64,000 nucleotides of DNA from a virus (taxonomy: Duplodnaviria; Heunggongvirae; Uroviricota; Caudoviricetes). The notes beneath the pieces are model-generated. The model saw only the letters and a list, made by a program, of their open reading frames with translations. It was not told where the DNA came from and searched no databases. The position numbers and the translations under genes are program-made. Shown here one piece after another: positions 7,431 through 63,979 of the stretch (position 1 is its first letter; the number at the start of each line of letters is the position of its first letter). The DNA is taken from positions 1 through 64,000 of the IMG/VR virus record IMGVR_UViG_3300045051_000909. One strand, written 5' to 3'.

Positions 7431-7443
7431 TTTACCGCGTAAA
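7431..7443. promoter_or_regulatory. TTTACnnnGTAAA inverted-repeat site (copy 1 of 4)
   Basis: TTTACCGCGTAAA between convergent gene ends; AT-rich palindrome in GC-rich DNA. Confidence 0.45.
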
Positions 7444-7481
7444 AAAAAACAAACCCCCCGAACCATTGCAGGTTCGAGGGG
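7441..7481 (-). terminator. minus-strand intrinsic terminator (CCCCGAACC..GGTTCGAGGGG hairpin, T-run on minus strand)
   Basis: hairpin preceded on + strand by A9 = T-run for minus-strand transcripts from 7738..8235. Confidence 0.5.
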
Positions 7482-7737
7482 TTCGTTCCACGCCGGGCCT
7501 CTGCGCCGTCCGCATGCGCTAAATGGGCGGGCAGCGTGTTGCGGACTTCGGGTAGCCGTCGCTGTGGGCCAGCGAAGCGGTCTTAGTGCGGTTCTTCTCG
7601 GTGCCCCGATGCTTCACCGATACTCTCCTAACGCCGTGCCACATCCCAATGGTCACAACGCCAGGTACAACGAACCACGCCACGGAATATACCCCGCAGT
7701 AAAAGAAAACGCCAGACCTTTCGGGCTGGCGCTTTCT

Positions 7738-8235
7738 CTACTCGGATTCAGCGTGCCATTGCGTTCGCTTCAGCAGAGGCGTAAACGCCCCAACGAGTTT
7801 GCCGCCATCGAAGATACCGATGTTGGACGGATCCCCGTCGGGATTCTGCTCCTCGCTGTAAAGATGGAACGTAGGGTCCGTTAGGACGGAAGTTAGGAAG
7901 TCGTAGAACTGCGGGCGCATGAAGCGCTCGACGTTCTCCGACACCAGCTGCATGACCTCAAGTGCCCCTTCTTCATCGTCTTCCCAGGAAGCACGCATGA
8001 CTTGAGCACGCTCTCCGTCAGTACCTTGCGGCACTTTTTCGTAACGCCACTGGCGCACGTCGACATACGGATCGCTGACCCACGACTCAACTTTGATCTG
8101 GTCGATAGGGTACTCAAGTACGAAGTAAGGCGAATGAACAATGCCGATGCCCTTGTCGGGGAGCATCAAGCAAGCGACTTTCCTATTACGAGGATGGAGC
8201 TTGTTCAACTCCTTAACATCGCGGTCGTCGATCAT
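7738..8235 (-). CDS. hypothetical protein (165 aa)
   Basis: ORF on minus strand; overlaps upstream minus gene end by 23 nt. Confidence 0.5.
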   Translation of the reverse strand: MIDDRDVKELNKLHPRNRKVACLMLPDKGIGIVHSPYFVLEYPIDQIKVESWVSDPYVDVRQWRYEKVPQGTDGERAQVMRASWEDDEEGALEVMQLVSENVERFMRPQFYDFLTSVLTDPTFHLYSEEQNPDGDPSNIGIFDGGKLVGAFTPLLKRTQWHAESE

Positions 8236-8566
8236 CGAGCCGGATCACCGTAGCCCCACCATGAAAGGGGCAATTATGGTCTTCACACATCTCACCGTGC
8301 TCATCCACCGCGTAGGTGTGATAATCCAGTGCTACCTCCTCCAGCTGATCGAGCAGCTTCTGTTCCATGTCCCCGTCTACTAGGTACATGTGAGTGGCTT
8401 CGAGAGCACCCGATACTAGCGTACCCGCCACAGCGCTGCCCAATCGCTCCGGCAGCCGACTCAGCTCGCGACGCTGAGGCGGGCTGCCCTCGCGTAGTCG
8501 ATCTTCGTCGATCTCCATGATGACTACCAACCTTTTGACTGCCATGATTTTCCACATCACCCGCAA
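8213..8566 (-). CDS. hypothetical protein (start uncertain, 8566 or 8545)
   Basis: ORF upstream of 7738..8235 on same strand; promoter-like GTGTATAAGTG ~8620. Confidence 0.4.
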   Translation of the reverse strand: MRVMWKIMAVKRLVVIMEIDEDRLREGSPPQRRELSRLPERLGSAVAGTLVSGALEATHMYLVDGDMEQKLLDQLEEVALDYHTYAVDEHGEMCEDHNCPFHGGATVIRLDDRRPRC

Positions 8567-8738
8567 AGGAGTGACTCGTTGGATGATGGTGGTGATGTGG
8601 TTATCGCAGTGGACACTTATACACTCACGTTCGTGCTGCTGCGTCGATAGGCTCGTAACTCGAGCCTACGTCGTTGCAGAGTCTCCACCCTAATACCAGG
8701 GTTTCCGTTGAAGCACTCTGCACCTCCAAAAATCAAAA

Positions 8739-8771
8739 GAAGCAGGGGGGAGTGTGTGGCCCCCTGCTTCT
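8739..8771 (-). terminator. intrinsic terminator after 8787..9236 (AGAAGCAGGGGG..CCCCCTGCTTCT)
   Basis: perfect 12-bp stem; on minus strand followed by TTTTGATTTTTGG. Confidence 0.6.
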
Positions 8772-8786
8772 ACCGCATGCTCTGCA

Positions 8787-9236
8787 CTACGAGCCCGCGG
8801 CCTCCTTGCGCTTGGCCGCCAGCGCGTTCTTGTTGCTGACGTGCTTCGTCAGCTCCGCGCGCAGCTCCGCCTCGCTCTTCTTGACGATCTCGAGCTCCTT
8901 GATGGCGGTCTCGAGCTTGGCCTTGGTGTCGGCCGCCCCGGTGATCATCTCGTTGTACTTCTCCTGGAGGGAGGTCTTGTCCGTCTGGGCCTGGAGGAGG
9001 GCGTGGCCCACCTGCTCGCGGTCCTGGCGGAGCTTCTCGAGGTCGGCGGTCATCTCGAGGACCTGGTTCTCCAGGCGCAGCTTCGAGTTGGTCACCACCT
9101 TGAGCTCGGCCTCCGTCTCCTTCACCTTCGTGGCGGCGCGCCGCCACAGGTAGGTGAGGGTGCCGGTTTCGGCGGCGACGGCGGCGCCGATGGCGATCTT
9201 GCCCCAGTGCGCTGCGAAGAAAGTTGCGATGCCCAT
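8787..9236 (-). CDS. membrane-anchored coiled-coil protein (149 aa); i-spanin/holin-like architecture
   Basis: N-terminal hydrophobic segment FFAAHWGKIAIGAAVAA followed by long heptad-rich helix; own promoter (GGTATAAGC ~9291) and terminator. Confidence 0.5.
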   Translation of the reverse strand: MGIATFFAAHWGKIAIGAAVAAETGTLTYLWRRAATKVKETEAELKVVTNSKLRLENQVLEMTADLEKLRQDREQVGHALLQAQTDKTSLQEKYNEMITGAADTKAKLETAIKELEIVKKSEAELRAELTKHVSNKNALAAKRKEAAGS

Positions 9237-9342
9237 TTGTAGTCTCCTCCAGGAGATGTTTTCCCGCCGGGAAATCCGTTCGGGTACAATTGCTTATACC
9301 TACCCCCAGTGGGCTTTTTAGAACCCCTGGGGGTATGCTAGG

Positions 9343-9639
9343 GTGATGCCCATGTCCTGGTCTAGAGAGCTTCCATTGGCAGGTACCCTGGCCCAGTTAA
9401 TGCGGGTCCAACTACGGCTAGAACGACTGGCCTTACTCCAGAAATTGCGTGCCGCCGAGACTCAGGCCGCATCCATGGGTGTCCCTGCGGACAAATTCCG
9501 CGAGATCGAACGCACACTGATGGCGATGCCGCTAGGCCCACCCGATGAGCTGGAATTGCCACCCCCAACGCCTAAGCCGGCTAGCAGCGATTCTGTGGAG
9601 CATCTAGCTGTGAGCACGAATCCTAGGAGCACGTTCTAA
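9343..9639 (+). CDS. hypothetical protein (98 aa)
   Basis: ORF preceded by GGGTATGCT -10-like; stop overlaps next start (TAATGG). Confidence 0.45.
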   Translation: MMPMSWSRELPLAGTLAQLMRVQLRLERLALLQKLRAAETQAASMGVPADKFREIERTLMAMPLGPPDELELPPPTPKPASSDSVEHLAVSTNPRSTF

Positions 9640-11420
9640 TGGCCGGACAGTGGACAAGTTACGAGCTCCCGAAGCTTCCTCCTGGCGTATCCTCCGCCGC
9701 TTCGACGATCAAGGCGATTCTGGATACGCTAACCTCTCTACTGAACCTTCTCAAGGGTGTTCTAGAGGTTCTGTCCAGCCTAGAGATTGGCAACCTGAGT
9801 GTTGCCCAGCTTGCGATCAAGGCTGCGATTAAGACGGTGGAAACCGCGATCCAGGCATTCATGGAAGAAGCCGGGATCTACATCCTCTTCGTGCCGCCAC
9901 GAAAGCGCGTTGTAATCCCGCCTGTGGTTAGCGAAGTCATGGGGCGTATCGGCGTCTCGTCCATGTCCGATCTCGTACAGGTAAAGGTCGGCTCGGCGCT
10001 TACTGTCGACTTCCCCAAAGACAATGCGGCGATGACGCAGTTTTATGATGAGGTTTTCTCGGGTAACGCAGGCAACGCCGGCTTCGTGCGCACCGTTATT
10101 GAATCTCTAGACGACTACGGGGACGCTAATCGCCCCCAGTTGGGACAGAACGATGCTGTATTCGGGATGTGTGTTGTAGCGGGTAGCTCAGACTACTTTC
10201 AGCTGTTGAGCTTCCTCACAGCGTTCCAGTCTCTATTTGGCGCGGGCCGTCCTGCAAGTTCAATGGAGGTGCCCGGGCTACCAGTCCCGCAGAACCTGCG
10301 TGTGCGCCCTGGTGGCGGGGGTATGTTCCTCGAGTGGGACTACCAGAATGGCCTGTCCGAGATCCCCAGCCTCAATACTAGTGCGATGATCAAAAAGATT
10401 GCGATCATCCGCAGTAAGAATCCTGTGCTGTTGAGCAAGACGCAGCCGATGGAGATCTTCGGCGGCAGTGATTTGACCTCGGGGATGAAGGCAGGAACTG
10501 GGGATGACGTCATCGAGATCATCGATGTGATCTCCGACGCCAGCGGCGCCAACCTTAAGCACGACTACATGGATACGAGCACAGAGTTCGATAGCGCGGA
10601 TTCTTACTTCTACACCGTCGCTTATGGCCTCTCTGTCGGGACTACTGCTGATTTGCTACTTGGAAAGGGTCAGGACATCGGATTCCGCCGCTTTTCCAAT
10701 GTGGCGAAGGCGTGTGTAGCCACGGACCCCGCCTCCGCCCGCTCCGCGTCTGGCACCGCCCCCGACTGGATGCGCACGCCGCGCTTGCCGGACATGATGC
10801 CTTTGTTCGGTAAGCTCATTGACCGGCTAAGTGTATACCTACAACAGTTCGACAATTACACTAGCGGCTTCGGGGATATGCTGAAGACGTATATCAAGGT
10901 GCTCGAGCAACAGATCCTCACCTACGAAGAGATGGCTCAGGAAGTCACGGGGACGGTTAACCAGCTCGTTTCGCTGCTGGACGTGAAAGCCAACGTCGGT
11001 ATCTACATGCGTCCTATCGACGGCGTCGGAGGTACGACATTCCTAAAGACGGACATGCTGTCGGCATTCAGTGACACCACCGATAGTCAACGCCCCCCAT
11101 TTGACCGGGGTGATGAATACGTAGGCGGCCTGGTGCTGCTCGCGGCGGCTCCCAGCAAGGTTGATTTAGCTCCAGTCAAGGCGCTGATACAGCAGCTTGT
11201 AATGAGTGGCGGGCAGGAAGAGAGTGTCATCTCTGCTGCCTTGAAAGAGATTGACAAGGTGCTCGATAGTGCTGAGCAGAGCCTCGCTGTAACCGAGTCC
11301 GCGCCTATCAGCGAGCCACCAGTTCTCGGTTCCGACGAGCCGCTACAGCCGGACTGCCCCCAGACGCTGGCTAGGCAGTATGACTTCAACGATGACCTTA
11401 GCGTACGAGGCGAACTGTGA
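9639..11420 (+). CDS. large virion protein (593 aa), function unassigned
   Basis: long ORF translationally coupled to 9343..9639. Confidence 0.55.
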   Translation: MAGQWTSYELPKLPPGVSSAASTIKAILDTLTSLLNLLKGVLEVLSSLEIGNLSVAQLAIKAAIKTVETAIQAFMEEAGIYILFVPPRKRVVIPPVVSEVMGRIGVSSMSDLVQVKVGSALTVDFPKDNAAMTQFYDEVFSGNAGNAGFVRTVIESLDDYGDANRPQLGQNDAVFGMCVVAGSSDYFQLLSFLTAFQSLFGAGRPASSMEVPGLPVPQNLRVRPGGGGMFLEWDYQNGLSEIPSLNTSAMIKKIAIIRSKNPVLLSKTQPMEIFGGSDLTSGMKAGTGDDVIEIIDVISDASGANLKHDYMDTSTEFDSADSYFYTVAYGLSVGTTADLLLGKGQDIGFRRFSNVAKACVATDPASARSASGTAPDWMRTPRLPDMMPLFGKLIDRLSVYLQQFDNYTSGFGDMLKTYIKVLEQQILTYEEMAQEVTGTVNQLVSLLDVKANVGIYMRPIDGVGGTTFLKTDMLSAFSDTTDSQRPPFDRGDEYVGGLVLLAAAPSKVDLAPVKALIQQLVMSGGQEESVISAALKEIDKVLDSAEQSLAVTESAPISEPPVLGSDEPLQPDCPQTLARQYDFNDDLSVRGEL

Positions 11421-11665
11421 TCCTGCGTGACTACGAATGTAAGAAGTGCGAAGAGGTATTCGAGGACTTCGATGGGTCCGAAGTAGCCTGCCCAAAGTGT
11501 AAGAGTGCGGAAGTTCAGCGGATTTTCGCTAAGTCCCCTGCGACGCTGACGGTAATCATCCCCACGTATCCCGGTTGCAAGAAGCACAAGGCTGGTTACG
11601 TGCACAGCCACGGCGACCGCCCAAAGACCCCCGGGAAGATCCAAGTAGGCTACACAGGCAAGTAG
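11417..11665 (+). CDS. FmdB-family zinc-ribbon protein
   Basis: YECKKCEEVFE...CPKCKS N-terminal Zn ribbon typical of FmdB-like regulators; GTGA overlap with upstream gene. Confidence 0.55.
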   Translation: MILRDYECKKCEEVFEDFDGSEVACPKCKSAEVQRIFAKSPATLTVIIPTYPGCKKHKAGYVHSHGDRPKTPGKIQVGYTGK

Positions 11666-11687
11666 ATGTAACCGCCTATACTTAGAC

Positions 11688-12785
11688 ATGCTCCAGCACC
11701 CCTACCAAGAGGGCCAGGCGGAAGCCCTCGGCGCGTTCGGCGTTGAGAAGACCGCCATCAGTGCTCCCCTGCTGCTAGGACTAGGCGGCCTCGGCGCCGG
11801 CTACGCCATGTCGCAGCCTGGAGAGGAGTCCCAGGGAAGCATCCTGGGCGGCCTCGGGGGGCTCGCAGCAGGCTTTGGGCTCCAAGCCGCAGGGCGTGGC
11901 CTCGGGCGTCTCGGACGCGCTGCTGGTGGCTTAGCGGCGCGCGCAGGACGCGGTGTCATGGGCCTGAATCGCGTGGGTCAGGGCACTGTTGACGCGCTCA
12001 AGAATTACAGCGTCGCAGGTGCCGCCGGTCAGCAGATAGCGGGAGCGTTGCCTGCGGGACAGGCGCCGCGAGCACTACCACCGATGGGCGGGACTACCCG
12101 CGCCCCTGCGTCGATGGGCCCGATTCCACAAGGCCCGTCGTCTCTGCCGCAGCAAGGGCAGCTGCCTCCAGGTCCCGCCGCCCCGCCGATGCTCCCACCA
12201 CCTCGTGGCATGGTCCCGGCGTCCCAGGCGATTATCCCCATGCAGGCAGGTCCTGCGGGCGCGTACGCCATGGCTGCGAAGCGTGCTTCTGAACTCTACG
12301 GCGTAAAGGAGGCTGATTGGCAGTTTGGCGTAAGTCCCAATCAGCTCCCTTTTCGTATCGGCTATTCCGACAAAGCAACGCGTCTAGAAGGCATGCACCG
12401 TTTCGTTTCTCCTGATGTGATCAATCAAGCCTACGAGGGGATCGACCAAGGCCATGATCCGCAGGCGATCTTAGATACCGCGAAGGATACCGGTAGTCTG
12501 TTACATCCCGGTGTCGGTGCGGCACTAGGTGCCTACGGCGTGCACCGGTTCCTTCCATCTGGCGGCCTGCCTGGTATGGCCCTAGGTGCCCTTGCTGGTG
12601 GTGGACTGGGAGCTATTTACAACGCAGCTACAGCAGGTGACCGTATCCGCGACATGAGCGAGGCGCTTCGCGGTATCCAACTCGAGGATCAGAAGCGCGT
12701 ATCGCGCCTATCCGCGATTGGGGGCCAGCCGTCTACAACGGCCAATGAGTCGAACCCACTGCTTGTCTCGCGTGGAGAAGCCTGA
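11688..12785 (+). CDS. Gly/Ala/Pro-rich hypothetical protein (365 aa)
   Basis: ORF with GLGGLG repeats and Pro-rich segment; mirror ORF on minus strand rejected. Confidence 0.5.
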   Translation: MLQHPYQEGQAEALGAFGVEKTAISAPLLLGLGGLGAGYAMSQPGEESQGSILGGLGGLAAGFGLQAAGRGLGRLGRAAGGLAARAGRGVMGLNRVGQGTVDALKNYSVAGAAGQQIAGALPAGQAPRALPPMGGTTRAPASMGPIPQGPSSLPQQGQLPPGPAAPPMLPPPRGMVPASQAIIPMQAGPAGAYAMAAKRASELYGVKEADWQFGVSPNQLPFRIGYSDKATRLEGMHRFVSPDVINQAYEGIDQGHDPQAILDTAKDTGSLLHPGVGAALGAYGVHRFLPSGGLPGMALGALAGGGLGAIYNAATAGDRIRDMSEALRGIQLEDQKRVSRLSAIGGQPSTTANESNPLLVSRGEA

Positions 12786-12955
12786 TGCTTCACGACGCCT
12801 ATAAGCTGGGAGCCGAGAAGGCGTTGGAGACGTTCGGTGTGCACGGCACGCCGAAGCCCCCGCCTACTTGGTCCCAAGGCGTGCAGAAGTCGCCCCGTAA
12901 AACTGTGCAGCTTGGCGTCACGATCCCATCCATGAGCGAGAGCCCTGCACGATGA
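12785..12955 (+). CDS. small protein (56 aa) coupled between 11688..12785 and endolysin
   Basis: TGATG overlap at start and ATGA overlap at end; below 60-aa track threshold. Confidence 0.35.
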   Translation: MLHDAYKLGAEKALETFGVHGTPKPPPTWSQGVQKSPRKTVQLGVTIPSMSESPAR

Positions 12956-13482
12956 GCCACTTCGACGAGGCCATCAAGAGCGTCCTCGTCCACGAGGGCG
13001 GGTGGTGTGACTACCCCGAAGATCCAGGTGGTGAGACCAACTTCGGCATCTCGATGATGTTCATCCGCAACCAGGGCCTTACTGCGAAGGATCTTGGCCT
13101 GGCGGATATGCAGCCCGGATGCTTGCGAAAGCTGAGTCTAGATACTGCCAAGGCGCTCTATCGTAAGTACTTCTGGGATCCATTCCCTTACGACAAGATC
13201 GACAACTATCGGATTGCGGCGAAGCTCTTTGATACCGCCGTAAACATCAGTCCGCGAAACGCGCACCGAATGCTCCAGCGCGTGCTCGGTGATGATTTGA
13301 AGGTCGATGGAGTCCTGGGACCAAAGACGATCTCTGCGACTAACGCCGCGACGCCCGATCTTCTTTTGGCTAGCTACTGCCAAGCTCACGCGGATTACTA
13401 CAAGGCGTTGGCCGCCCGTAAGCCTGAGATGAAGATCTTTCTGAAGGGCTGGCTTGAGCGCGCCCGCTGGCCTCTGAGCTAA
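12952..13482 (+). CDS. endolysin: GH108-like glycosidase domain + PG_binding_3 peptidoglycan-binding domain
   Basis: HEGGWCDYPEDPGGETNFGI (GH108 signature) then DGVLGPKTISA... C-terminal PG-binding module. Confidence 0.8.
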   Translation: MSHFDEAIKSVLVHEGGWCDYPEDPGGETNFGISMMFIRNQGLTAKDLGLADMQPGCLRKLSLDTAKALYRKYFWDPFPYDKIDNYRIAAKLFDTAVNISPRNAHRMLQRVLGDDLKVDGVLGPKTISATNAATPDLLLASYCQAHADYYKALAARKPEMKIFLKGWLERARWPLS

Positions 13483-14579: not shown

Positions 14580-15512
14580 TTACTTTCGCGTCAGTGCGTC
14601 GATGTTCATCAGCGGTGTTACTCCGCCCATGATCGTCTGGGGTAACTGCCCGTTCCACTTTTCCACGCGCGCTCGCTCCACTTCCAGGCGCCGCAACTCG
14701 AGCAGCTTGTCGGTCAGTGCTGCGTTGAGTAATGCGTTGGCCTTGGCTTCTGCTTCGGCGCGCGCCAGCTTGGATTTGGCCTCGCCTTCGGCGGTTGTGA
14801 GATTTGCTCGAGCGTCAGCTTCCGCAGCCGCTACGCGCTTGGCACCCTCGGCCTGTGCTTGTTTCACCTCGTTCTCCACTCGCAGCGCGTGCTGCGTGGC
14901 TTCGATCTTGGCGTTCAGAGTTTTGACCACGCTGTCCGGCAGTCGGAAGGTCCCGATGAGGTAAACCTTGCTTACTTCGATGCCGAAAGGTTTGACCTCA
15001 GCGGCGACCCGGTCCTGGACCTTGTCCATCAGTTCGGCTTTGCCTTCTCCGTAAACCGATTCCACGGACATGGACCCCCCGATCTCATTGATGGCGTCGC
15101 GTACGTTGTTGCGCAAAAACGTATCGGTGATCTCGTCGATGCCGCGTCGATACTTCTGGAACACGGTGACCACCTTGTCGGACGGGATGTGGTAGGTGAT
15201 CCCGATGTCTGCGTTGACGCTCAGTCCTTCCTTGGTCTGGAAGGTCAGCGACTCGTCGCGCGGCGACTGGTCGGTCTTGTCGTGCGTCCAGGTGTAATTC
15301 TGCTCGTAGATCGGGAACTCGTACAGCGTTTCACCCATGCTCATCCAGTGCACCCCGACCGGCAGGATCTTGGGCTCGACGCCCTTGCCCTCGCCGAAGA
15401 GATCCACCTTGACGCCGACGTGACCCGGATCCACCGTTGCGCACTGACAACCGCCGTAGCACCCACCGGACAGCAACAACAGCAACGCCAGAAGCCTCAG
15501 ATCGTGTTTCAT
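14580..15512 (-). CDS. SPFH/band-7 (prohibitin/flotillin-like) domain lipoprotein
   Basis: start moved to MKHDLRLLALLLLLSGGC (lipobox); SPFH core ...VNADIGITYHI...AEVKPFGIEV.. then Ala/Glu-rich coiled coil; ATGA overlap with upstream gene. Confidence 0.8.
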   Translation of the reverse strand: MKHDLRLLALLLLLSGGCYGGCQCATVDPGHVGVKVDLFGEGKGVEPKILPVGVHWMSMGETLYEFPIYEQNYTWTHDKTDQSPRDESLTFQTKEGLSVNADIGITYHIPSDKVVTVFQKYRRGIDEITDTFLRNNVRDAINEIGGSMSVESVYGEGKAELMDKVQDRVAAEVKPFGIEVSKVYLIGTFRLPDSVVKTLNAKIEATQHALRVENEVKQAQAEGAKRVAAAEADARANLTTAEGEAKSKLARAEAEAKANALLNAALTDKLLELRRLEVERARVEKWNGQLPQTIMGGVTPLMNIDALTRK

Positions 15513-15712
15513 TTCTTCTCCTTGTGTTTGTTGTAGAAGTGAACACCAACGGCGATGGCGCTTATCACGCCAGCACCGACAGCGATAAAGCCGAGACGGA
15601 CCAGGGCGTCGTTCTGAGAACTGACCCAGTGTGGCACCCAGATCCCGTACAGCATGACCGCAGGGACTGCTGTCATCCCCGCATAGACGACGTGGACAGG
15701 CTTCAAAGACAT
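15509..15712 (-). CDS. small two-TM membrane protein, NfeD-like partner of SPFH gene
   Basis: 67 aa, two hydrophobic helices, GAGG RBS, translationally coupled to SPFH gene. Confidence 0.5.
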   Translation of the reverse strand: MSLKPVHVVYAGMTAVPAVMLYGIWVPHWVSSQNDALVRLGFIAVGAGVISAIAVGVHFYNKHKEKK

Positions 15713-15896
15713 CGTTTACCTCGTAACGAAAACGCCACCCACCCTCGCAGGTGAGTGGCGTCATGGGTAGCCGGGGGCCGGGACCTACCCGGCGACCCTT
15801 GGGTTAGCTAACCCACTGCTCTGGTCCAGGCTCCTCAACCGCGCTAGCTTTCGGCTCGGTGTGCCCAAGTCTGAGCTACCCCGGCATGCGTTGGAA

Positions 15897-20118: not shown

Positions 20119-20472
20119 TCACACTGCCTTTCTGCGAATGCGGCGCCCGAAGGCCTTCCGCAATTCCTTCTCCATTCTCTTTGTGAGCTCCAGCATGTCG
20201 CTGATGCCGTTTCGAACACGACTACTGGCATCGACCTGGATTACGGTAAGACCATGCGCAGCCGGATCTGAGCCTCTCAGCCCGTCAGCCGATTCCCCGA
20301 GTTCTTTGTTAAAGTTCTCGAGAGACTGCGCAGTCCAGTCACTCCATTCTTGGAGCTCCCGGAGTGTCTTTTGCAGGCGCCACCCCTGCTTGGACAACTC
20401 GCGTTTTCTCATTGGGTTGCGTACCTCCAGTGGATTGGGTTTAGAAGCCACCTGTGGCGCGGGTACATACAC
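20119..20472 (-). CDS. hypothetical protein (start possibly internal MRKREL)
   Basis: chosen over opposite-strand ORF 20012..20509 because all neighbours are minus-strand. Confidence 0.4.
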   Translation of the reverse strand: MYVPAPQVASKPNPLEVRNPMRKRELSKQGWRLQKTLRELQEWSDWTAQSLENFNKELGESADGLRGSDPAAHGLTVIQVDASSRVRNGISDMLELTKRMEKELRKAFGRRIRRKAV

Positions 20473-20483
20473 TTATACCCACG

Positions 20484-20681: not shown

Positions 20682-20684
20682 TAT

Positions 20685-21706: not shown

Positions 21707-21733
21707 CTTATACCCGCTCTACCACCTATACTT
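21707..21733. promoter_or_regulatory. divergent promoter pair (minus GGGTATAAG; plus TATACT)
   Basis: CTTATACCC and CTATACTTG elements between divergent genes 21686(-) and 21739(+); coordinates +/-2. Confidence 0.4.
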
Positions 21734-39950: not shown

Positions 39951-39953
39951 GCA

Positions 39954-53621: not shown

Positions 53622-53915
53622 ATGCGCTGGCTCAAACTTGCACACGGTCTAGTCGTAGTTGCTTTGATCGCGGTGCTTATCGCGGTCGTAACAGGAGCTC
53701 AGCGCAACCACGCGGTTGCTCTAGAGAATGCGCAACACTATGCAGCTTCCCGCCATCCGCTTCGAGAAATTAGCGTCGAGTGTGCTCAGTTTGATTCACA
53801 CTCAGACGGCTATTTGCACTGCGCTGTGGTTTTGGATAAACAGCGGGTCATTCTGATCGAGTGCCCGGGTGCCTTGACCTTCAACAAGGACTGCAAGGAG
53901 AATTGGTGGCCCTGA
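53622..53915 (+). CDS. signal-anchored small secreted protein (97 aa)
   Basis: GGAGG RBS; MRWLKLAHGLVVVALIAVLIAVV hydrophobic N-terminus; Cys pairs. Confidence 0.5.
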   Translation: MRWLKLAHGLVVVALIAVLIAVVTGAQRNHAVALENAQHYAASRHPLREISVECAQFDSHSDGYLHCAVVLDKQRVILIECPGALTFNKDCKENWWP

Positions 53916-54364
53916 ATCGAGTTCCGCCGCGCCACGCCATTGTTTTACTGCGTAAAGACAAGGCGAAGCAAAGCGCGTCTCACTGGCGCGTAGCGGTTGT
54001 TCGTAACAGTAAAAAGGTGCTCATCGCCCCTATGTTTGGACCGGTGTCCCGGCAGCACAGCGGCACGGAAACCGTGGGGCCCAACTGCCTTGACCCCATC
54101 TGCTCCAACTGCAAGGAGCCCGCCTCGGACCACGCAGACAATGGCAAGTGTCTGTGGCATCCTACCTTTTTCAACTATGAAAAGGTTTCGCGTGAGTACC
54201 TTCTGAAGCTCGAGGAGGACTTTCAGGCGGATATGAAAAGGAAGGCCGAGGAGTACGAAGAGTATCGTAAACGGGAAGAGCTACTGGCCAAGTCCGCGGA
54301 AACGCAGTGGCTCTTCGGCCCACACTACCGCCCCAAGAAGAAGTCAGGAGGCAAGGTCAAATGA
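53906..54364 (+). CDS. zinc-knuckle family paralog 17 (CSNCKEPASDHADNGKCLWHPTFF) with K/E-rich C-terminal extension; start uncertain
   Basis: family motif in middle; TTTACTGCGTAAA site lies at 53944-53956 so true start may be downstream. Confidence 0.45.
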   Translation: MALNRVPPRHAIVLLRKDKAKQSASHWRVAVVRNSKKVLIAPMFGPVSRQHSGTETVGPNCLDPICSNCKEPASDHADNGKCLWHPTFFNYEKVSREYLLKLEEDFQADMKRKAEEYEEYRKREELLAKSAETQWLFGPHYRPKKKSGGKVK

Positions 54365-57170: not shown

Positions 57171-57175
57171 GCAAG

Positions 57176-57212
57176 GGCCCGGGCAACCGGGCTCCTGCTT
57201 TCTTTGGTCTAC
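57176..57212 (+). promoter_or_regulatory. terminator-promoter cassette (GCCCGG..CCGGGC hairpin, T-run, TGGTCTACG)
   Basis: pattern as other cassettes. Confidence 0.4.
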
Positions 57213-57233
57213 GTTGTAAACGCGAGGTTCCTA

Positions 57234-57524: not shown

Positions 57525-57848
57525 ATGAACCACGAACCTACAAGCCACCTCGACGAGTCCTCCGAAGAGGCGTCGAAATCTTCGTCTTCTTCGAAGGCGT
57601 TCACGTACCGCGTAGGTGATCGCGTTCGTATCGACTTCATGGGAGGCGCGGTCTACGGCACCGTCTTCCAGGTCGTCAACGACACCACCGTGCGCGTGGT
57701 CTATGAGCACAGTCCAGAGTTCAATTCATACCATGCCGTGAGTTGGCGGGTCTCCGACATTCGAAAGCTCTGCCGCAACTGCCGCCGTCTCTACTCCGAA
57801 CACGCACAGAACGCCAAGTGTCTGTACGCCCCCGGCTACTTCGAATAG
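57525..57848 (+). CDS. zinc-knuckle family paralog 20 (CRNCRRLYSEHAQNAKCLYAPGYF); start uncertain
   Basis: VGDRVRIDFMGGAVYGTV SH3/KOW-like N-domain + family motif; preferred over overlapping ORF 57395..57619. Confidence 0.5.
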   Translation: MNHEPTSHLDESSEEASKSSSSSKAFTYRVGDRVRIDFMGGAVYGTVFQVVNDTTVRVVYEHSPEFNSYHAVSWRVSDIRKLCRNCRRLYSEHAQNAKCLYAPGYFE

Positions 57849-58094: not shown

Positions 58095-58139
58095 GATAGA
58101 CTCCGGGGCTAAGGTTTCGGCTTACTAAAGGCTTATACC

Positions 58140-58457
58140 ATGTCGAATGATCGTCGTATGGAGCAGCTGCTCGGCCGTCAGATGGCGGCTATTGTGACCT
58201 CGATCAATGAAAAGCGGTACCCTGAACTATGCCGTCACTGTCATCAGTATCAAGACGAGCACGCCGAGGGTGGCAAATGTCTGTTTGAGCCTTCGACGTT
58301 TGACCCCTACCCCAATGCAGAAGCGCTGCAAACCGCAAACACCGCGTCGGAGCGCCTGAGAAAACTAAATGAACTCATTGAAGAAGTGGAAGCACCTTCG
58401 CCGCCGACCCCCATACATTGGCCCACTACAAAAGGGTCAACGGGTCGTGGTACGTGA
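58140..58457 (+). CDS. zinc-knuckle family paralog 21 (motif near N-terminus: CRHCHQYQDEHAEGGKCLFEPSTF)
   Basis: family motif followed by 55-aa tail. Confidence 0.5.
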   Translation: MSNDRRMEQLLGRQMAAIVTSINEKRYPELCRHCHQYQDEHAEGGKCLFEPSTFDPYPNAEALQTANTASERLRKLNELIEEVEAPSPPTPIHWPTTKGSTGRGT

Positions 58458-59018: not shown

Positions 59019-59452
59019 AATTTTCGGAAACCACCGCGTCACACTGCCGTTATGGGGGGCATGCGGAGGAGATCTGGGGGGACTGGCAGGTACTCTGGGA
59101 GTACAGCATTGCCGACTACCAAGGTAGCGCCCGGTTCCTTGCTGCCAAGAATGGTCGATTCGCTTACTACGAATGGAACTACGGTTCCTGTTCAGGTTGT
59201 GATAGCTGGGAAGCCGCTGGGACCTCGGATGCCGATATCTGCGAGGAGATGAAGCGCGATGCACTCTGGTTCACCAATCGCGCTGAGGTGGATGCCTGGC
59301 TTTTGCAGCGGTCTACTAGCAGCACGGATGCCGCTGATATGATGCACGCACTCCGCAACGTCTGCCCCCACTGCGGTCGCGGCAAGGATGACCATGCGAA
59401 TAGCGGCAAGTGTTTCTACGAGCCGACGACCTGGAAGGAGATGGAGACGTGA
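59015..59452 (+). CDS. zinc-knuckle family paralog 23 (CPHCGRGKDDHANSGKCFYEPTTW)
   Basis: GTGA coupling. Confidence 0.55.
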   Translation: MKFSETTASHCRYGGHAEEIWGDWQVLWEYSIADYQGSARFLAAKNGRFAYYEWNYGSCSGCDSWEAAGTSDADICEEMKRDALWFTNRAEVDAWLLQRSTSSTDAADMMHALRNVCPHCGRGKDDHANSGKCFYEPTTWKEMET

Positions 59453-59772: not shown

Positions 59773-59813
59773 CAAAAAGAAAGGGCGCCCCTCGTGGGTG
59801 CGCCTTTTCTTTT
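59773..59813. terminator. bidirectional terminator (GGGCGCCC..GGGTGCGCC hairpin flanked by A-run and T-run)
   Basis: between convergent 59769(+) and 59812(-). Confidence 0.6.
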
Positions 59814-60144
59814 AGTCGGGGGAGAGTAGCCCAGCGTCACGGAGCATGGGCTTGAGGTATTCAGGGGGCGCTGGATCAGGGAGCAGCTGCCATACCTTCT
59901 GATCTGCCTCGGATAGCTCACCCGGTTCGTTGACATCACGGCGTGCCAGGATCTGCCGGTAAACGCCCGTCCAGTACAAGAAATACGACGCGTGGATCAG
60001 CTCAAAGGGATTGGGCAGGTAGACAATATGCACGCCAGGCTGAATACATTTGATGAGCTGCTTCATGAAGTGCCCGAAGAGCACAACGATGCCGACAGGA
60101 ACGAGGAGCCACAGCAGCGCGACCACGGCGTATCGGCGGATCAT
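59812..60144 (-). CDS. membrane protein (minus strand, start MIRRYAVV)
   Basis: two TM helices. Confidence 0.45.
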   Translation of the reverse strand: MIRRYAVVALLWLLVPVGIVVLFGHFMKQLIKCIQPGVHIVYLPNPFELIHASYFLYWTGVYRQILARRDVNEPGELSEADQKVWQLLPDPAPPEYLKPMLRDAGLLSPD

Positions 60145-60181: not shown

Positions 60182-60203
60182 CTTATACCATTCCGGGTAT
60201 AAG
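60182..60203. promoter_or_regulatory. back-to-back divergent -10 elements forming inverted repeat CTTATACCattccGGGTATAAG
   Basis: serves 59812..60144(-) and 60250..60759(+). Confidence 0.5.
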
Positions 60204-60249
60204 CGTTTGTTTCGGAGATTTACTCCGTAAACACCGATAGGAGAAGATC

Positions 60250-60759
60250 GTGAAAGAAATCGAAAGGAAGTTTCTGGTCCGCGCTGATCTCCTTCCCGCC
60301 TTGACCAAGGAAGACACGGCCAAGGTGAAGAAGGTCACTCAAGGATACCTCTCCATGGTACCCCCAGTCGTGCGCGTGAGGCTGGTTTCCACGAGTGAGC
60401 CCAACGACGTGCCCCGCGCCTACATGACCGTGAAGAGCGCTGGGACGCTGGTGCGCGAGGAAATCGAGACGGAGATCCTGCCTCGCTTCGGCTTCGAGCT
60501 GATGAAGCTCTGTCCGGTGTCGCTGTACAAATTCCGGCGGGACATGGGCGAGGGGTGGGTCGTGGACCATATCCCGGCGCTCGACCTCTGGCTCGCAGAG
60601 ATTGAGCTCGATCATGAGATGCAGCAGTTCCGCAGGCCCGCGTGGCTGGGGCGTGAGGTGACTGAGAGCCCGGAGTTCACCAGCCTGGCGCTGGCCCAAA
60701 AACTTCATCAAAAGCTTCAGGGCGACGGGAGCGTGCACGAACGTAACGCCCGCACCTAG
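60250..60759 (+). CDS. CYTH-domain (triphosphate tunnel metalloenzyme; CyaB/ThTPase-like) protein
   Basis: N-terminal EIERKFLV (ExExK), VRVRL, T.K....REE.E.EI, WLAEIELD acidic motifs. Confidence 0.6.
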   Translation: MKEIERKFLVRADLLPALTKEDTAKVKKVTQGYLSMVPPVVRVRLVSTSEPNDVPRAYMTVKSAGTLVREEIETEILPRFGFELMKLCPVSLYKFRRDMGEGWVVDHIPALDLWLAEIELDHEMQQFRRPAWLGREVTESPEFTSLALAQKLHQKLQGDGSVHERNART

Positions 60760-61822: not shown

Positions 61823-62071
61823 ATGTGGCGGCGAAAAGACGACTATATGACGCCAGAGGACTTTCGGTCCTGGTGCGTCAACTGCCTGCTACATCACGAT
61901 GATCACGCGGGGGAGAAGTGTCTCTATTCCCCTACGTTCTTCGCCCCCATTGAAGACATTCGTCCGGGTCAGATCGTTCCTCAGAGGTACCGGATAGTAC
62001 TCACCGAGTTCAGAAAACGCCTGATACAGCAGAGACGCCATGCACGAAAAAGACCTAAAAAAGCTAGCTAA
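61823..62071 (+). CDS. zinc-knuckle family paralog 25 (CVNCLLHHDDHAGEKCLYSPTFF, motif near N-terminus)
   Basis: family motif. Confidence 0.5.
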   Translation: MWRRKDDYMTPEDFRSWCVNCLLHHDDHAGEKCLYSPTFFAPIEDIRPGQIVPQRYRIVLTEFRKRLIQQRRHARKRPKKAS

Positions 62072-62351
62072 CCGTTTAGGGGATGAGCGTGTCGCTCGCA
62101 GCCTGGCTAAGTTCCAGTGTCGCTACTGCCGTCAGGCTAAAGCCGATCATGCGGACAACGGGAAGTGTTTGTATGAACCGACGTTCTTCGAATCACTAAC
62201 CGAAGAGCAGATCCAGGCCCAGATTGCTGAGCGCCAGACGGTTATGAAGGAGCTGTCCAGCTTCATCCACAAGTGGCAAGGTAAAGAGAGTCTTACCCGA
62301 CAGCTGTTTCCTGCAAGACCCGTTTTACCAAAAGGACCGAGATACAAGTGA
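62040..62351 (+). CDS. zinc-knuckle family paralog 26 (CRYCRQAKADHADNGKCLYEPTFF, motif near N-terminus)
   Basis: overlaps paralog 25 by 32 nt. Confidence 0.5.
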   Translation: MHEKDLKKLANRLGDERVARSLAKFQCRYCRQAKADHADNGKCLYEPTFFESLTEEQIQAQIAERQTVMKELSSFIHKWQGKESLTRQLFPARPVLPKGPRYK

Positions 62352-62719
62352 ATGACGCACGACCCTTCTTCGAAAAGACTCGCGAACCGCAGAGCTTCGC
62401 GCCTTATTTCCACAGTCTGCGCGTCCACCCATGTAACGCCTGTAACCAGGAAGTCATGGACCAGGAGCTCTTCGAGCCCTCTTTCTATGTGAGTCTCGAA
62501 TCTCTGCGTGCGCACACCAAGAATCTCTTCCGCCTGCACTGCCATACCAAGACCCCAAAGGAACATGGACGCCGGGCACTGTATGCTCGTCCGTGGTGGG
62601 TCATCGAGTCCTTGTATCAGATGTCGGACGGCTTCTGGCGTCCTGCCATGGTCGCGGGGGGCTACTCACTGTCGGAAGCTATCAAGGCCGCCATTGCAGA
62701 GATTCCGGAGATCCCATGA
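62348..62719 (+). CDS. degenerate zinc-knuckle family paralog 27 (CNACNQEVMDQELFEPSFY; His and last Cys lost)
   Basis: retains CxxC and ELFEPSFY tail. Confidence 0.45.
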   Translation: MNDARPFFEKTREPQSFAPYFHSLRVHPCNACNQEVMDQELFEPSFYVSLESLRAHTKNLFRLHCHTKTPKEHGRRALYARPWWVIESLYQMSDGFWRPAMVAGGYSLSEAIKAAIAEIPEIP

Positions 62720-63063
62720 CGGACATCAAGGACATGGTGATGCTCTGTAAAAACTGTGTGTTGACGAAGGATCAGCACGATCCCAACGGGCACTGCTTAT
62801 TTGAACCCACGTACTTCGAACCCGTCGACATCACCAAGGTGAAGGGGCAAGCCGAGATCATCAAGTACAAGGAGATCATTCGCAAGGCACACGAGAGTAT
62901 CCGGCGCCAGACTGAGCAGCTTGAGCAAACCTCGATAGCTCTGGATCGCACGTCAGAGCTTCTTGGCCGCACCTGCACACACCGCTACGCCAATGGGAAA
63001 TACGCAGGGGATAACGGGTTCCTGTATTCCCACTGCGAAATCTGCGGCGCGCCGCTTGACTAA
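62716..63063 (+). CDS. zinc-knuckle family paralog 28 (CKNCVLTKDQHDPNGHCLFEPTYF) with coiled-coil and C-terminal CEICG
   Basis: ATGA coupling. Confidence 0.55.
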   Translation: MTDIKDMVMLCKNCVLTKDQHDPNGHCLFEPTYFEPVDITKVKGQAEIIKYKEIIRKAHESIRRQTEQLEQTSIALDRTSELLGRTCTHRYANGKYAGDNGFLYSHCEICGAPLD

Positions 63064-63088
63064 TAGAATCGCATACGCTAGAAGGAAG

Positions 63089-63127
63089 GCCGTAAGGTTG
63101 ACGCGATTGACCTTACGGCTTTTTTTA
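63089..63127 (+). terminator. strong intrinsic terminator (GCCGTAAGG..CCTTACGGC + T8)
   Basis: 9-bp perfect stem + TTTTTTT. Confidence 0.7.
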
Positions 63128-63143
63128 GCTCACAGAGGGAAGG

Positions 63144-63329
63144 ATGACACGAACTGAAGGGGAACAGCTACTCATCGAAAAAGCAGAGCGGTATCAGGCG
63201 ATGTGGCGGTTGATCAAGTCCAAGAAATACAAAGGCAGCCGCCTTGACCTACTGGACCTGGAGATCGAAGTCATCAGCGCCGCCCAGAAGCTTCCACCCC
63301 GCCGTCCCAAGAAGGTGTCACATGCCTGA
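63144..63329 (+). CDS. small hypothetical protein (61 aa)
   Basis: AGGGAAGGATGA RBS-like. Confidence 0.45.
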   Translation: MTRTEGEQLLIEKAERYQAMWRLIKSKKYKGSRLDLLDLEIEVISAAQKLPPRRPKKVSHA

Positions 63330-63681
63330 ACAGTACTTGGAGAAAGGCCCCATGCGGTTCGATTACGGGGGCGAGGCTTATGCCGAAGGCTTCGAACGCG
63401 TATTCGGTCCGAAGGTGTGCAAGGGGGATCACAACTTGGAACTGGTCGCTCCGAGCCCCGAAGACCGTATCTGCGATGGAGACATTACCTGTGACACCCT
63501 GGTGTGCGGCAAGCTAGTCTGCAAGAAGTGCGACGTCGTTTGCACGGTCACTACCAATCGAGGGGCGCCGCTCTGCGAAGTATGCGGTCTGCCCCAGCAC
63601 ATGCACTCAGTGGACAAGAAGTCTTTCGTTATCGACGGTCTCGGCGCGATCCCGTGCTGGCCTCGAGAGGAGAAGCGATGA
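63322..63681 (+). CDS. Cys-rich hypothetical protein (119 aa)
   Basis: many CxxC/CxC pairs. Confidence 0.45.
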   Translation: MPEQYLEKGPMRFDYGGEAYAEGFERVFGPKVCKGDHNLELVAPSPEDRICDGDITCDTLVCGKLVCKKCDVVCTVTTNRGAPLCEVCGLPQHMHSVDKKSFVIDGLGAIPCWPREEKR

Positions 63682-63956
63682 GCACGCCTGAAAACGCTGA
63701 GCCGCAGCAACAGCAGATGTCCCCGCGTGAAGTCTTGCTAGCAACCCTTGCTGGGTGGTTGGACTCCGTAGCGCGCGAAGGCTCTACCGACGAAAGCATC
63801 ACCTTCCGGAAGGTTGGTTACATGCCGGGGGCTACGCAAGGACAGCGAGCCGGGGTAGTGGTTTCAGCGCGTGCCGAAGTAACCACGGCGATGGCACCGC
63901 TCGAGTACACCAAGATTGTTCCCGCGACGAGCGGGATCATCCTTCCGAAGCACTGA
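63678..63956 (+). CDS. hypothetical protein (92 aa)
   Basis: ATGA coupling; followed by TTTACTGCGTAAA palindrome. Confidence 0.45.
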   Translation: MSTPENAEPQQQQMSPREVLLATLAGWLDSVAREGSTDESITFRKVGYMPGATQGQRAGVVVSARAEVTTAMAPLEYTKIVPATSGIILPKH

Positions 63957-63960
63957 CCTT

Positions 63961-63979
63961 CGCTTTACTGCGTAAAGCG
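63961..63979. promoter_or_regulatory. CGCTTTACTGCGTAAAGCG palindrome (TTTACnnnGTAAA copy 4)
   Basis: 19-bp near-perfect inverted repeat after last gene. Confidence 0.45.

Follow-up and report, generated by a model that had tools for sequence, protein, structure and literature searches.

A 13-bp palindrome repeated in the gaps between genes of an uncultured phage clade is a candidate multi-copy operator

A 13-base palindrome, TTTACnnnGTAAA, occurs about ten times in the phage DNA analysed here (the window, 64,000 nt), mostly in gaps free of genes. The pattern searched over the whole window was TTTAC-N3-GTAAA, that is, 5 + 3 + 5 bases. The matches, and two promoter-like boxes next to them, are as follows.

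7431 to 7443: exact copy, TTTACCGCGTAAA, 2 nt past the stop codon of a hub-like gene (5890-7428, plus strand)
12295 to 12307: one-mismatch match, TCTACGGCGTAAA, in-frame coding sequence (…LYGVKEADW…) of a conserved reading frame
15715 to 15727: one-mismatch copy, reading GTTACGAGGTAAA-cg-ATG on the minus strand, after a minus-strand terminator (15754-15735)
20684 to 20696: exact copy, reading TTTACGAGGTAAA-ta-ATG on the minus strand, overlapping the stop codon of the upstream gene (20685-20993)
26943 to 26955: exact copy, TTTACTGAGTAAA, within a plausible 73-aa minus-strand ORF (26780-27001)
33848 to 33860: one-mismatch copy, GTTACGGCGTAAA, 1 nt before the box-like sequence of the next line
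33862 to 33871: plus strand, GGGGTATGTC, variant of the -10-type box of the family, abutted by the 33848 palindrome
41180 to 41192: one-mismatch copy, TTTACCGCGTAAT, among the final codons of a 60-aa ORF
53944 to 53956: exact copy, TTTACTGCGTAAA, codons 13-17 (5′ end) of an independently called gene (53906-54364)
57208 to 57220: one-mismatch copy, TCTACGTTGTAAA, followed by cgcGAGG and by an ATG at 57234
60196 to 60203: plus strand, GGTATAAG box upstream of the 60219 palindrome, overlapping a divergent minus-strand box (60182-60189)
60219 to 60231: exact copy, TTTACTCCGTAAA, 15 nt downstream of the plus-strand box at 60196-60203
63961 to 63979: longer palindrome, CGCTTTACTGCGTAAAGCG, with an exact copy inside it (63964-63976)

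The 7431 copy occupies a convergent intergenic gap, immediately beyond the T-run of a minus-strand terminator (7489-7446). At 15715, the central GAG and the next G form the Shine-Dalgarno (SD) sequence of a 67-aa ORF (15509-15712) that precedes SPFH/VWA genes, and the 20684 copy lies 2 nt ahead of a 65-aa ORF (20484-20681). On the minus strand, cGAGG comes next after the 26943 copy. The 33848 copy ends 38 nt before the ATG of a 643-aa gene, the first of the rightward arm, and the 41180 copy is 1 nt ahead of GAAGGAG, the SD sequence of the gene that follows (ATG 41208). The 57208 copy follows a plus-strand terminator (57175-57194), 13 nt past its stem and 2 nt past its T-run. The 60219 copy covers about +9 to +21 relative to a predicted start, 18 nt ahead of a GTG at 60250. 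The longer palindrome at 63961-63979 lies in the gap between two plus-strand genes (63678-63956 and 64017 onward), with a small GC hairpin after it. The 12295 match is probably due to chance, judging from the sequence: the homologous sequence of the related locus L001 has no match, and chance alone would give about 0.5 such matches. It was left out, and the other ten are regarded as credible copies.

It was found that the window has six exact matches (0.00 expected from shuffles) and eleven with at most one mismatch (0.51 expected); none of the shuffled sequences equalled either count. An earlier note on this DNA had claimed an excess far above chance from four copies at 7431, 33848, 53944 and 63961-63979. 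The excess holds, and the four coordinates and sequences were all confirmed, including the one mismatch at 33848, but the exact copies at 20684, 26943 and 60219 had been missed, as had the one-mismatch matches at 15715, 41180, 57208 and 12295. The note had also placed the repeat in non-coding DNA. This is true of seven of the ten credible copies, in a window of which coding sequence takes up at least 83% (P about 3e-4); the 53944 copy is in a called gene, and the 26943 and 41180 copies are inside ORFs. The spacing is strict, since the core TTAC-N3-GTAA occurs nine times and each of the remaining N0 to N8 spacers 0-1 times. Eleven control palindromes of the same composition have no occurrence in the window. 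A density comparison of the kind that the note had proposed, with shuffled and other genomes, was made, and the motif survives it: the family's 211 kb of DNA gave 17 exact palindromes, and the 404 kb of unrelated phage loci, 114 kb of which exceed 50% GC, gave none. The density in the family DNA is 0.8 exact copies per 10 kb. By extrapolation, a genome of ~180 kb would have about 15 exact copies and 25-30 near-exact ones. It is true that the gaps with the copies are comparatively rich in AT and that one match (12295) is probably accidental. Nevertheless, an artefact of AT-rich intergenic composition is effectively refuted by the shuffles, the spacing, the absent controls, the conservation of orthologous sites and the restriction of the motif to one family.

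In the arms, positions 2-5 hardly vary and position 1 is less well conserved; the centre is free, and no arm mismatch is compensated on the opposite arm. Thus, base-specific contacts with a protein fit the pattern, and a structural stem does not. The minimum free energy of the 13-mer as RNA was 0 kcal/mol (four 13-mers folded), so that, most likely, a dimeric protein recognises the duplex DNA. Since the flanks of the ten window copies are unrelated to one another, the palindrome is not part of a longer repeat. The central triplet is asymmetric: of 21 sites, 16 have CG on exactly one side, where 10.5 are expected (p about 0.015). The TTTACG half is oriented with transcription at seven sites and against it at five.

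May the palindrome act in RNA, as an mRNA hairpin or protein site just before ribosome-binding sites, for translational control or processing? Eleven of the ~21 family copies contain an SD sequence or end within 8 nt of one, and the extended palindrome at 63961-63979, the only version that folds as RNA, reaches -7.8 kcal/mol. However, this possibility is very improbable: the 13-mer alone does not fold, mismatches are never compensated, start codons follow at anything from 2 to 40 nt, and in gaps as short as these SD proximity is mostly unavoidable. Furthermore, the copies upstream of -10 boxes (33848 and L063:3152) and in the convergent gap would not be in a useful transcript. An intrinsic terminator has a GC-rich stem able to fold by itself, with a U-run after it; this was rejected, as the 13-mers have no fold and the nearby terminators are separate hairpins. 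The hairpin promoter of the N4 virion RNA polymerase has a stem of 5-7 bp, a 3-nt loop and a start about 11 nt past the loop centre. Such a promoter was also rejected, since the start codon is 2-4 nt past the stem at 15715, 20684 and L006:9787, and the SD sequence would be cut off at L001:4045 and L001:6715; no virion RNA polymerase was seen.

The palindrome is specific to one clade of uncultured myovirus-like phages of ~170-190 kb. The cultured phage nearest to the clade is Salmonella phage Arash, with a sheath identity of only 30%. Almost all genes of the clade are unannotated. Between the window and contig 3300014204_000001, whose sheaths are 61% identical, all three testable orthologous sites keep the arms in diverged gaps. 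The 7431 copy is kept at the orthologous L001:15461 (the same as L006:16782), where the flanks have diverged. The ortholog of the 15715 copy, TTTACGAGGTAAA at L006:9787, gives 14 consecutive identical bases amid DNA that is ~45% identical. At L006:7115, the ortholog of the 20684 copy directly adjoins a GGTATAAG box, whereas in the window an insertion, the small 65-aa ORF, separates the palindrome from the box (20472-20479). The palindrome has kept its place despite the changed distance, which fits a site working alone. The 33848 copy is identical in the JGI contig L043. In L042 the arrangement of this copy with its box is not conserved, but the palindrome persists, next to a flanking 612-aa gene that is 44% identical; it is also present in L002-L005. 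The 26943 region is covered by no relative.

The family has separate promoter-like boxes. A -10-type box, GGTATAAG, is found in the genome arms in 16 exact copies (0.59 expected), and a second one, CCTATACT, precedes structural genes (3 copies, 0.56 expected), which have a conserved CCTATAC(T/C) box ahead. The palindrome resembles neither box; with these putative promoters at hand, it is not needed as a promoter. Three independent, non-orthologous copies (33848, L006:7115 and L063:3152) adjoin a GGTAT box with a gap of 2-3 nt. With the 60219 copy, about 3-4 of ~21 copies are at promoter-like boxes, and inspection of the sequences downstream of the other ~17 family copies found no -10-like hexamer. 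Short gaps without a box hold the copies at 7431, 15715, 20684, 57208 and 63964 in the window and L001:4045, L001:6715 and L042:19298 in relatives. A collection-wide scan for the palindrome with a box gave matches, among high-GC DNA, only in contigs of this clade. In a scan for consensus -35 and -10 hexamers 16-18 bp apart, no palindrome copy was assigned as promoter to the gene after it, and the number of promoter-like sigma-70 calls was at or below the shuffle expectation. The single call that overlaps a copy (20709-20680) was dismissed as a chance match; its -10 hexamer covers the ATG at which the downstream ORF begins. TTTAC lacks equivalents of the A at -11 and the T at -7.

Is the palindrome a positive-control element? 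A phage activator or a phage-modified polymerase would then use a distinct promoter class to switch on a temporal class of transcription units, in the manner of the T4 MotA box at middle promoters or of the 9-bp inverted repeat that Lpa binds at the late promoters of P1. The 15715 and 57208 copies lie directly after a terminator T-run and before SD and ATG, in the slot filled elsewhere by GGTATAAG boxes. Two L001 copies (4045 and 6715) sit 11-12 nt ahead of the ATGs of structural genes, exactly at gene insertions or gaps missing from L002-L005. The three box-abutting copies are 4-5 nt upstream of a -10 hexamer that has no -35 and are centred near -23/-24; GTAAAC recurs at the predicted starts of box promoters. 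Against this, most copies have no -10-like hexamer downstream, and the structural genes already own their CCTATAC(T/C) box. At 15715, 20684 and L006:9787 the palindrome is followed by the ATG after only 2-4 nt and has the SD sequence in its centre, so that a transcript starting downstream would lose the SD sequence. The 7431 copy and its ortholog are between convergent genes, with nothing there to transcribe, and only at about every second site does the TTTACG half point the same way as the neighbouring gene. Positive control seems rather unlikely.

Are similar repeats known? In phage P1, an inverted repeat bound by an activator is found at 11 Lpa-dependent late promoters (PMC10695390). The three box-abutting copies likewise form a short inverted repeat by a -10 hexamer without a -35, but every P1 repeat is linked to a promoter and the sequences are unrelated. 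The P1 repeat is positioned at -22, close to the centre of those three copies. The conserved inverted repeats (CIRs) of Streptomyces phage phiC31 and the C1 operators of P1 are 17-bp repressor-binding sequences repeated across many intergenic regions of temperate phages, and their repressors are identified; they are like the palindrome in intergenic repetition but differ in sequence and length. Cluster A mycobacteriophages (L5, Bxb1 and TipsytheTRex) have more than 20 13-bp sites per genome, some at promoters and most in short intergenic spaces (PMC9283540). The palindrome resembles these operators and stoperators in its length and copy number and in having a minority of copies at -10 boxes and a majority at junctions without promoters. 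In contrast, the L5-type site lacks symmetry; the immunity repressor binds it as a monomer through two DNA-binding domains and blocks elongation, and the site is functional only in one orientation relative to transcription. The window site is dyad-symmetric and has no consistent polarity to genes. L5-type phages are temperate siphoviruses of ~50 kb, unlike this myovirus-like clade of ~180 kb, and no homologue of the L5-type repressor was found in the window.

The operator OB of KorB, in the IncP-1 plasmid RK2, is the 13-bp TTTAGC(C/G)GCTAAA (PMC2680271), present in multiple copies near to and far from promoters for global regulation (PMC2680271, PMC11790492). Does the palindrome, then, load a ParB/KorB-like clamp, or serve a protein of partition, replication, packaging or genome organisation, its intergenic placement merely reflecting avoidance of coding sequence? 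The two sites share the 5 + 3 + 5 architecture, eight of ten arm bases and the mixture of promoter-adjacent and distant copies (PMC11790492 for KorB). One conserved copy (7431) occupies a convergent gap, and the central triplet has a 7:1 strand bias in the window whatever the gene direction, though this bias falls short of significance and L020 contradicts it. However, TTTACnnnGTAAA is a phage sequence, not a plasmid one, with G and C swapped at the inner arm base (TTTAC, not TTTAG) and a free centre where KorB needs a fixed GC-S-GC. The spacing is irregular in the closest relative, and the repeated juxtaposition to -10 boxes points to transcription. No ParB-type, KorB-type or other partition protein was found among the 117 window proteins, about two thirds of the genome lying beyond the window. 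Such a non-transcriptional site is improbable.

Recurrence in gene-free gaps and retention in uncultured relatives make a docking site for a regulator most likely. The reading I favour, tentatively and at slightly less than even confidence, is that TTTAC-N3-GTAAA is a multi-copy operator, the duplex-DNA site of a probably dimeric DNA-binding protein encoded by the phage. Its copies would be placed in the few non-coding gaps, at junctions of transcription units. Where a copy abuts a putative GGTAT(A/G)AG -10 box (33848, L006:7115 and L063:3152), a protein bound there would govern initiation, and occlusion of RNA polymerase is the simplest way; the 60219 copy, just past the predicted start, would have the same role. 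A negative effect is favoured, and activation is possible. This classical role covers only a minority, since about two thirds of the copies have no recognisable promoter nearby. By analogy, the promoter-less junction copies, the majority, may act as a roadblock or insulator for passing polymerase, or they may merely mark unit boundaries. The earlier note's interpretation, a candidate operator, is partly supported. Further observations speak against an operator. The slot at 15715 and 57208 suits a promoter equally well, two or three copies are inside ORFs, and the one-sided central CG is left unexplained by a simple symmetric dimer.

Which protein might bind? No canonical HTH regulator was detected by Pfam among the 117 window proteins, and neither an immunity repressor (HTH plus stoperator domain) nor an integrase was seen in the window; the clade is probably lytic. 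A Crp-type winged-HTH gene is common to L042 and L020 and absent from the syntenic spot in the window. The earlier note had listed a Myb-domain protein among the candidate binders. This protein does show a homeodomain/Myb-like fold but has no link to the motif. It is conceivable, though doubtful, that an early protein with a Myb/homeodomain-like domain, the 643-aa product whose gene adjoins the 33848 copy, binds the ~25-30 junction palindromes and stops or gates host RNA polymerase there, giving a dyad-symmetric, stoperator-like insulation. It would act like the eukaryotic Myb-like terminator Reb1 and drive the switch between temporal gene classes, and the one-sided central CG would be a hidden polarity of each site.

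Most likely, the palindrome is an element of a familiar kind, an operator-like repeat, here in an unstudied phage group. Together with the two boxes, GGTATAAG and CCTATAC(T/C), it provides a first testable map of transcription and regulation for a clade without a close cultured relative, and a 13-bp probe is enough to capture the regulator by DNA affinity. Should the sites turn out to be ordinary operators or to bind an activator, the gain is annotation of a routine yet useful kind. If they act on elongating polymerase, the stoperator principle would cover a symmetric site as well and would no longer be confined to temperate mycobacteriophages.

I found all four copies of the inverted repeat TTTAC-N3-GTAAA (exemplified by the duplex cgcTTTACTGCGTAAAgcg) that the earlier note had reported, and the motif is commoner than was stated there. 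The window has six exact copies of TTTACNNNGTAAA and 11 copies when up to one mismatch is allowed, against 0.00 and 0.51 expected by chance from dinucleotide-preserving shuffles. No shuffle attained either count, which bears out the excess claimed earlier. One match, 12295, lies in-frame within a conserved protein, is absent from L001, a piece of the closest relative (contig 3300014204_000001), and was treated as due to chance. Ten copies are regarded as credible.

Copies of the palindrome in the window, by start position
7431, 20684, 26943, 53944, 60219, 63964: exact
12295, 15715, 33848, 41180, 57208: one mismatch

The geometry of the motif is strict. The core TTAC-N3-GTAA occurs nine times in the window, versus zero or one occurrence for spacers of 0-2 and 4-8 bp, and the inverted arrangement GTAA-Nx-TTAC is found at most once. 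None of eleven control palindromes of equal composition is present in the window, and about one-fifth of its TTTAC pentamers fall within palindromes. It is hardly conceivable, given such counts, that chance produced the set. The ten credible copies have unrelated flanks, so the unit is the 13-mer alone, and a longer repeat or a mobile element was ruled out. The intervals between window copies (3.0-12.8 kb) appear fairly even, but the idea of regular spacing was dropped, as the copies in the closest relative are uneven (2.7-8.8 kb).

Seven of the ten credible copies (7431, 15715, 20684, 33848, 57208, 60219, and 63964) lie outside genes (P ~3e-4, with the coding fraction set deliberately low at 83%). 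The non-coding placement described in the earlier note thus stands for most copies but not for 53944, which it had listed: this copy and 26943 are within small ORFs, and the ORF around 53944 was independently called as a gene in a Logan assembly. Copy 41180 occupies the final codons of a 60-aa ORF, immediately ahead of the next SD. A terminator T-run on one strand precedes 7431, 15715, 57208, and 63964 as well as the orthologs of 7431 and 15715; L020:1616, in another piece of the closest relative, lies ahead of a terminator. In 11 of about 21 copies, an SD is contained in the copy or lies within 8 nt of its end. Copies 15715 and 20684 read TTTAC-GAG-GTAAA-nn-ATG, and L006:9787 of the closest relative reads TTTAC-GAG-GTAAA followed by cgcc-TTG. 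With gaps of only 20-90 nt, much of this proximity to SDs is forced.

Is the palindrome confined to one lineage? The window encodes a tail-sheath-like protein (2620-4656), a gp5-like hub (5890-7428), a collagen-like fibre, and SPFH, VWA, and AAA proteins, together with about 120 unknown ORFs, most of them small. Plus-strand (structural) genes occupy 1-7428 and 9346-13482, leftward genes about 7.5-33 kb, and rightward genes the part from 33899 onward. There is no DNA-level similarity to deposited phages, and among cultured phages the closest sheath protein is that of Salmonella phage Arash (30% identity). The relatives, uncultured viruses with genomes of 168-190 kb (L001-L005), have 58-61% identical sheaths and are joined by additional pieces of the closest relative (L006, L020, and L046) and by L042, a 25-kb Logan contig encoding a 612-aa protein with 44% identity to the 643-aa Myb-like product of the first rightward gene. 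L063, a 180-kb contig retrieved by DNA pattern, probably belongs among them. Two Logan contigs encode proteins identical to those of the window. The viral collection contained no relatives for three right-arm proteins and one left-arm protein, and metagenome matches to the AAA ATPase were unrelated contigs lacking the motif.

The motif marks one clade: 17 exact copies are present in 211 kb of non-redundant family DNA (the window, L001 plus L020, L002-L005, and L042), whereas the 404 kb examined from other phages, including 114 kb with >50% GC, contain none. Neither the shuffles nor these other loci show a similar density. All three copies that can be compared between the window and its closest relative are kept at the orthologous place, and in each pairwise alignment the arms are identity islands amid poorly alignable intergenic DNA.

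Orthologous copies, from pairwise alignment
7431 = L001:15461
15715 = L006:9787
20684 = L006:7115

Judging from these genomes, copies also come and go among relatives. In L002-L005, no copy follows the hub gene but one precedes the homolog of the 593-aa gene, and L001 copies 4045 and 6715 coincide with gene gaps or insertions not found in L002-L005. A literature search gave no report of TTTAC-N3-GTAAA in a phage. The sole match in a prophage and host search was a 5.3-kb scaffold labelled as an Archaeoglobales MAG (L044, QMZE01000092.1). It has an exact palindrome at 3602 and a tube-like protein 59% identical to that of window 5039-5815, and is almost certainly phage DNA that was binned with an archaeal genome by mistake.

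Scanning for terminators showed a conserved tail after strong hairpins, which led to the recognition of a box, (G/T)GGTAT(A/G)AG. Its exact form GGTATAAG occurs 16 times in the window versus 0.59 expected, and about 25 times counting variants. The box always faces the next gene, usually right behind a terminator T-run; next come GTAA(A/C)C, an A/C-rich leader (…CCGAAAACC), an SD, and ATG. It is kept in all relatives, with the form GGTATAAT in L005. The terminator-plus-promoter cassettes around small ORFs resemble the promoter-early stem-loop (PeSL) cassettes of T4-type phages. A second box, CCTATACT of the CCTATAC(T/C) type, is confined to plus-strand structural-type genes; it precedes the sheath gene in six genomes (that of the window and those of five relatives) and also two other plus-strand genes.

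Promoter-like boxes
9293, 17935, 20472, 21707, 25440, 26737, 27651, minus strand: exact GGTATAAG
28252, 28699, 31891, 32962, 58132, 60182, 61798, minus strand: exact GGTATAAG
39939, 60196, plus strand: exact GGTATAAG
7694, 29603, ~30100, 33862, 42020, 42624: variants of GGTATAAG
2581-2588, 11675-11682, 21725-21732, plus strand: CCTATAC(T/C) box
L001:3604, 9965; L002:9958, 19285; L003:9956, 19662: CCTATAC(T/C) box in relatives

Both boxes look like -10-type promoters without a -35 element, their promoter role and start sites being predictions from sequence. Because the second box is only 5-6 nt from the ATG at three genes, it suggests that the late messages of such genes may be leaderless. At 60182-60203, overlapping GGTATAAG boxes on opposite strands form a palindrome of their own, CTTATACC-attcc-GGGTATAAG, which the terminator scan misread as a hairpin. 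The two boxes probably serve 59812-60144 (minus) and 60250-60759 (plus) as a compact pair of divergent promoters. The TTTAC-N3-GTAAA palindrome is unlike either box. It is unlikely to be a late-gene promoter, since a separate CCTATAC(T/C) box is conserved and the structural blocks of L002-L005 are palindrome-poor; sigma-70 and N4-type hairpin promoters were ruled out on geometry.

Three non-orthologous copies end 2-3 nt ahead of GGTAT.

Box-abutting copies
Window 33848: GTAAA-cgg-GGTATGTC
L006:7115: GTAAA-cg-GGTATAAG
L063:3152: GTAAA-ct-GGTATAAG

The ORFs flanking L063:3152 have no homology to the other box-abutting loci. With the predicted start taken as about 7 nt after the hexamer, a box-abutting copy would span about -30 to -18, and copy 60219, 15 nt downstream of the box at 60196-60203, about +9 to +21. 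All other copies are farther than 60 nt from any box and are not followed by a -10-like hexamer. When the whole viral collection was scanned for a palindrome and a box no more than 12 nt apart, 21 loci were obtained, of which 19 are contigs of 24-47% GC, mostly with a single matched copy and in a number close to chance expectation; the only two near 58% GC are family contigs. In a giant-virus MAG (L061, GVMAG-M-3300013093-42, 37% GC), four exact TTTACNNNGTAAA lie at 74-, 74-, and 26-bp intervals in 2153-2340, two of them followed by GGTATAAG; this array is an unrelated tandem repeat matching both patterns by coincidence. At 20684, an inserted 65-aa Cys-rich ORF (20484-20681, MPALKKRVCGYCGK…) separates the palindrome from the GGTATAAG box; in the closest relative (L006:7127-7150), these two elements adjoin. 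The palindrome centre has changed from GCG to GAG, creating the SD of the inserted ORF. Thus, the palindrome is kept regardless of its distance from the box.

That the palindrome is itself an activator site or a separate promoter class is rather unlikely. Copies 15715 and 57208 do occupy a slot equivalent to that of the box promoters, and L001 has copies at structural genes, but start codons may be only 2 nt away, one copy lies in a convergent gap, and there is no polarity relative to genes.

Is the site read as DNA or as RNA? Four different 13-mers have an RNA minimum free energy of 0 kcal/mol, which rules out a self-folding hairpin or a part of a terminator. Only the extended copy at 63961-63979 folds as RNA (-7.8 kcal/mol), and an RNA element is very improbable. 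In 21 distinct family copies, the arms hardly vary at positions 2-5, are less well conserved at position 1, and enclose a free centre, while no mismatch has a compensating change on the opposite arm. On these grounds, base-specific contacts to two symmetric half-sites in duplex DNA, in the style of a dimeric protein, are predicted. The position adjoining the arm prefers G (20 of 42 half-sites), and this G is on exactly one side in 16 of 21 sites versus 10.5 expected (chi-square p ~0.015). Seven of eight asymmetric window copies have their CG side on the plus strand, irrespective of gene direction, and TTTACG faces away from the box in all three box-abutting copies. The one-sided central CG is unexplained by the symmetric-site model. 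A DNA site with a non-transcriptional role is improbable; as to a strand-locked element of the replication or nick type, the 7:1 plus-strand bias is not significant and L020:1616 contradicts it.

The Myb-like protein, whose gene (ATG 33899) adjoins copy 33848, has only two homologs in the protein database, too few for co-occurrence statistics. Two relatives encode a small Crp-type winged-HTH protein at syntenic positions (L020 3300-4472 and L042 6150-6509); it was rejected as the binder, since its 1.2-kb segment is gone from the syntenic spot of the window, between 24649 and 24828. This segment also carries a one-mismatch palindrome (L020:3937).

Several other features of this genome were observed. 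A gene-free gap of about 1 kb separates the divergent arms (window 32905-33898, L042 9139-10000). It contains four iteron-like repeats (C/T)GTTTCGCCGA(C/G)TC at 33129-33282, is AT-rich near 33350-33395, and has TGTCAAA/TTTGACA palindromes (window 33460-33500, L042 9662-9700). The L042 gap also holds nested inverted repeats whose arms measure 47, 34, and 18 nt. The gap is a candidate replication origin or regulatory hub. On the minus strand, about 250 nt (7446-7694) form a unit that has a box of its own (GGGTATATT, 7694), a strong terminator (7489-7446), and an RNA fold z of -4.07. Independent calls place no gene there, and Rfam and tRNA scans gave no matches in the unit or elsewhere in the window; the unit may contain a 54-aa ORF or specify a small RNA. 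Many small arm proteins have a common Cys-containing C-terminal peptide of about 22-30 aa (45-65% identity), and by this resemblance they appear to be a large paralogous family of tiny proteins, present in relatives too.

Small ORFs with the Cys peptide include
39888-40232, 40057-40428, 42631-42954, 45900-45990 (window)
46490-46912, 53840-54364, 57760-57840, 58113-58457 (window)
59350-59450, 62025-62351 (window)
L006:562-650; L042:18641-18979, 19045-19287

The initial observation is confirmed and extended. It is plausible, if short of probable, that the palindrome is a multi-copy operator of a phage regulator, and negative or roadblock action would be favoured for this putative operator. The earlier note had also proposed a regulator-binding site; this part is partly supported, while the control of the whole rightward arm and the binders it named are not established. 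In L5-type mycobacteriophages, repressor sites are operators at promoters and stoperators in intergenic spaces (PMC9283540). The present motif likewise has many 13-bp copies per genome, a minority on promoters and a majority at short promoter-less junctions. However, L5-type sites are asymmetric, depend on orientation, and are recognised by a monomer; the present site is palindromic and without polarity relative to genes. These differences are decisive, and thus it is not a member of that system. The KorB operator of RK2, TTTAGC(C/G)GCTAAA (PMC2680271), has the same 5+3+5 palindromic build and 8 of 10 identical arm bases, and KorB works from promoter-proximal and distal sites (PMC11790492), but the sequence differs and no ParB-like protein is found among the window proteins. 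The 9-bp inverted repeat bound by the activator Lpa at P1 late promoters (PMC10695390) parallels only the three box-abutting copies. Multi-copy regulatory sites are already known in phages, and the present site is an instance in an unstudied clade.
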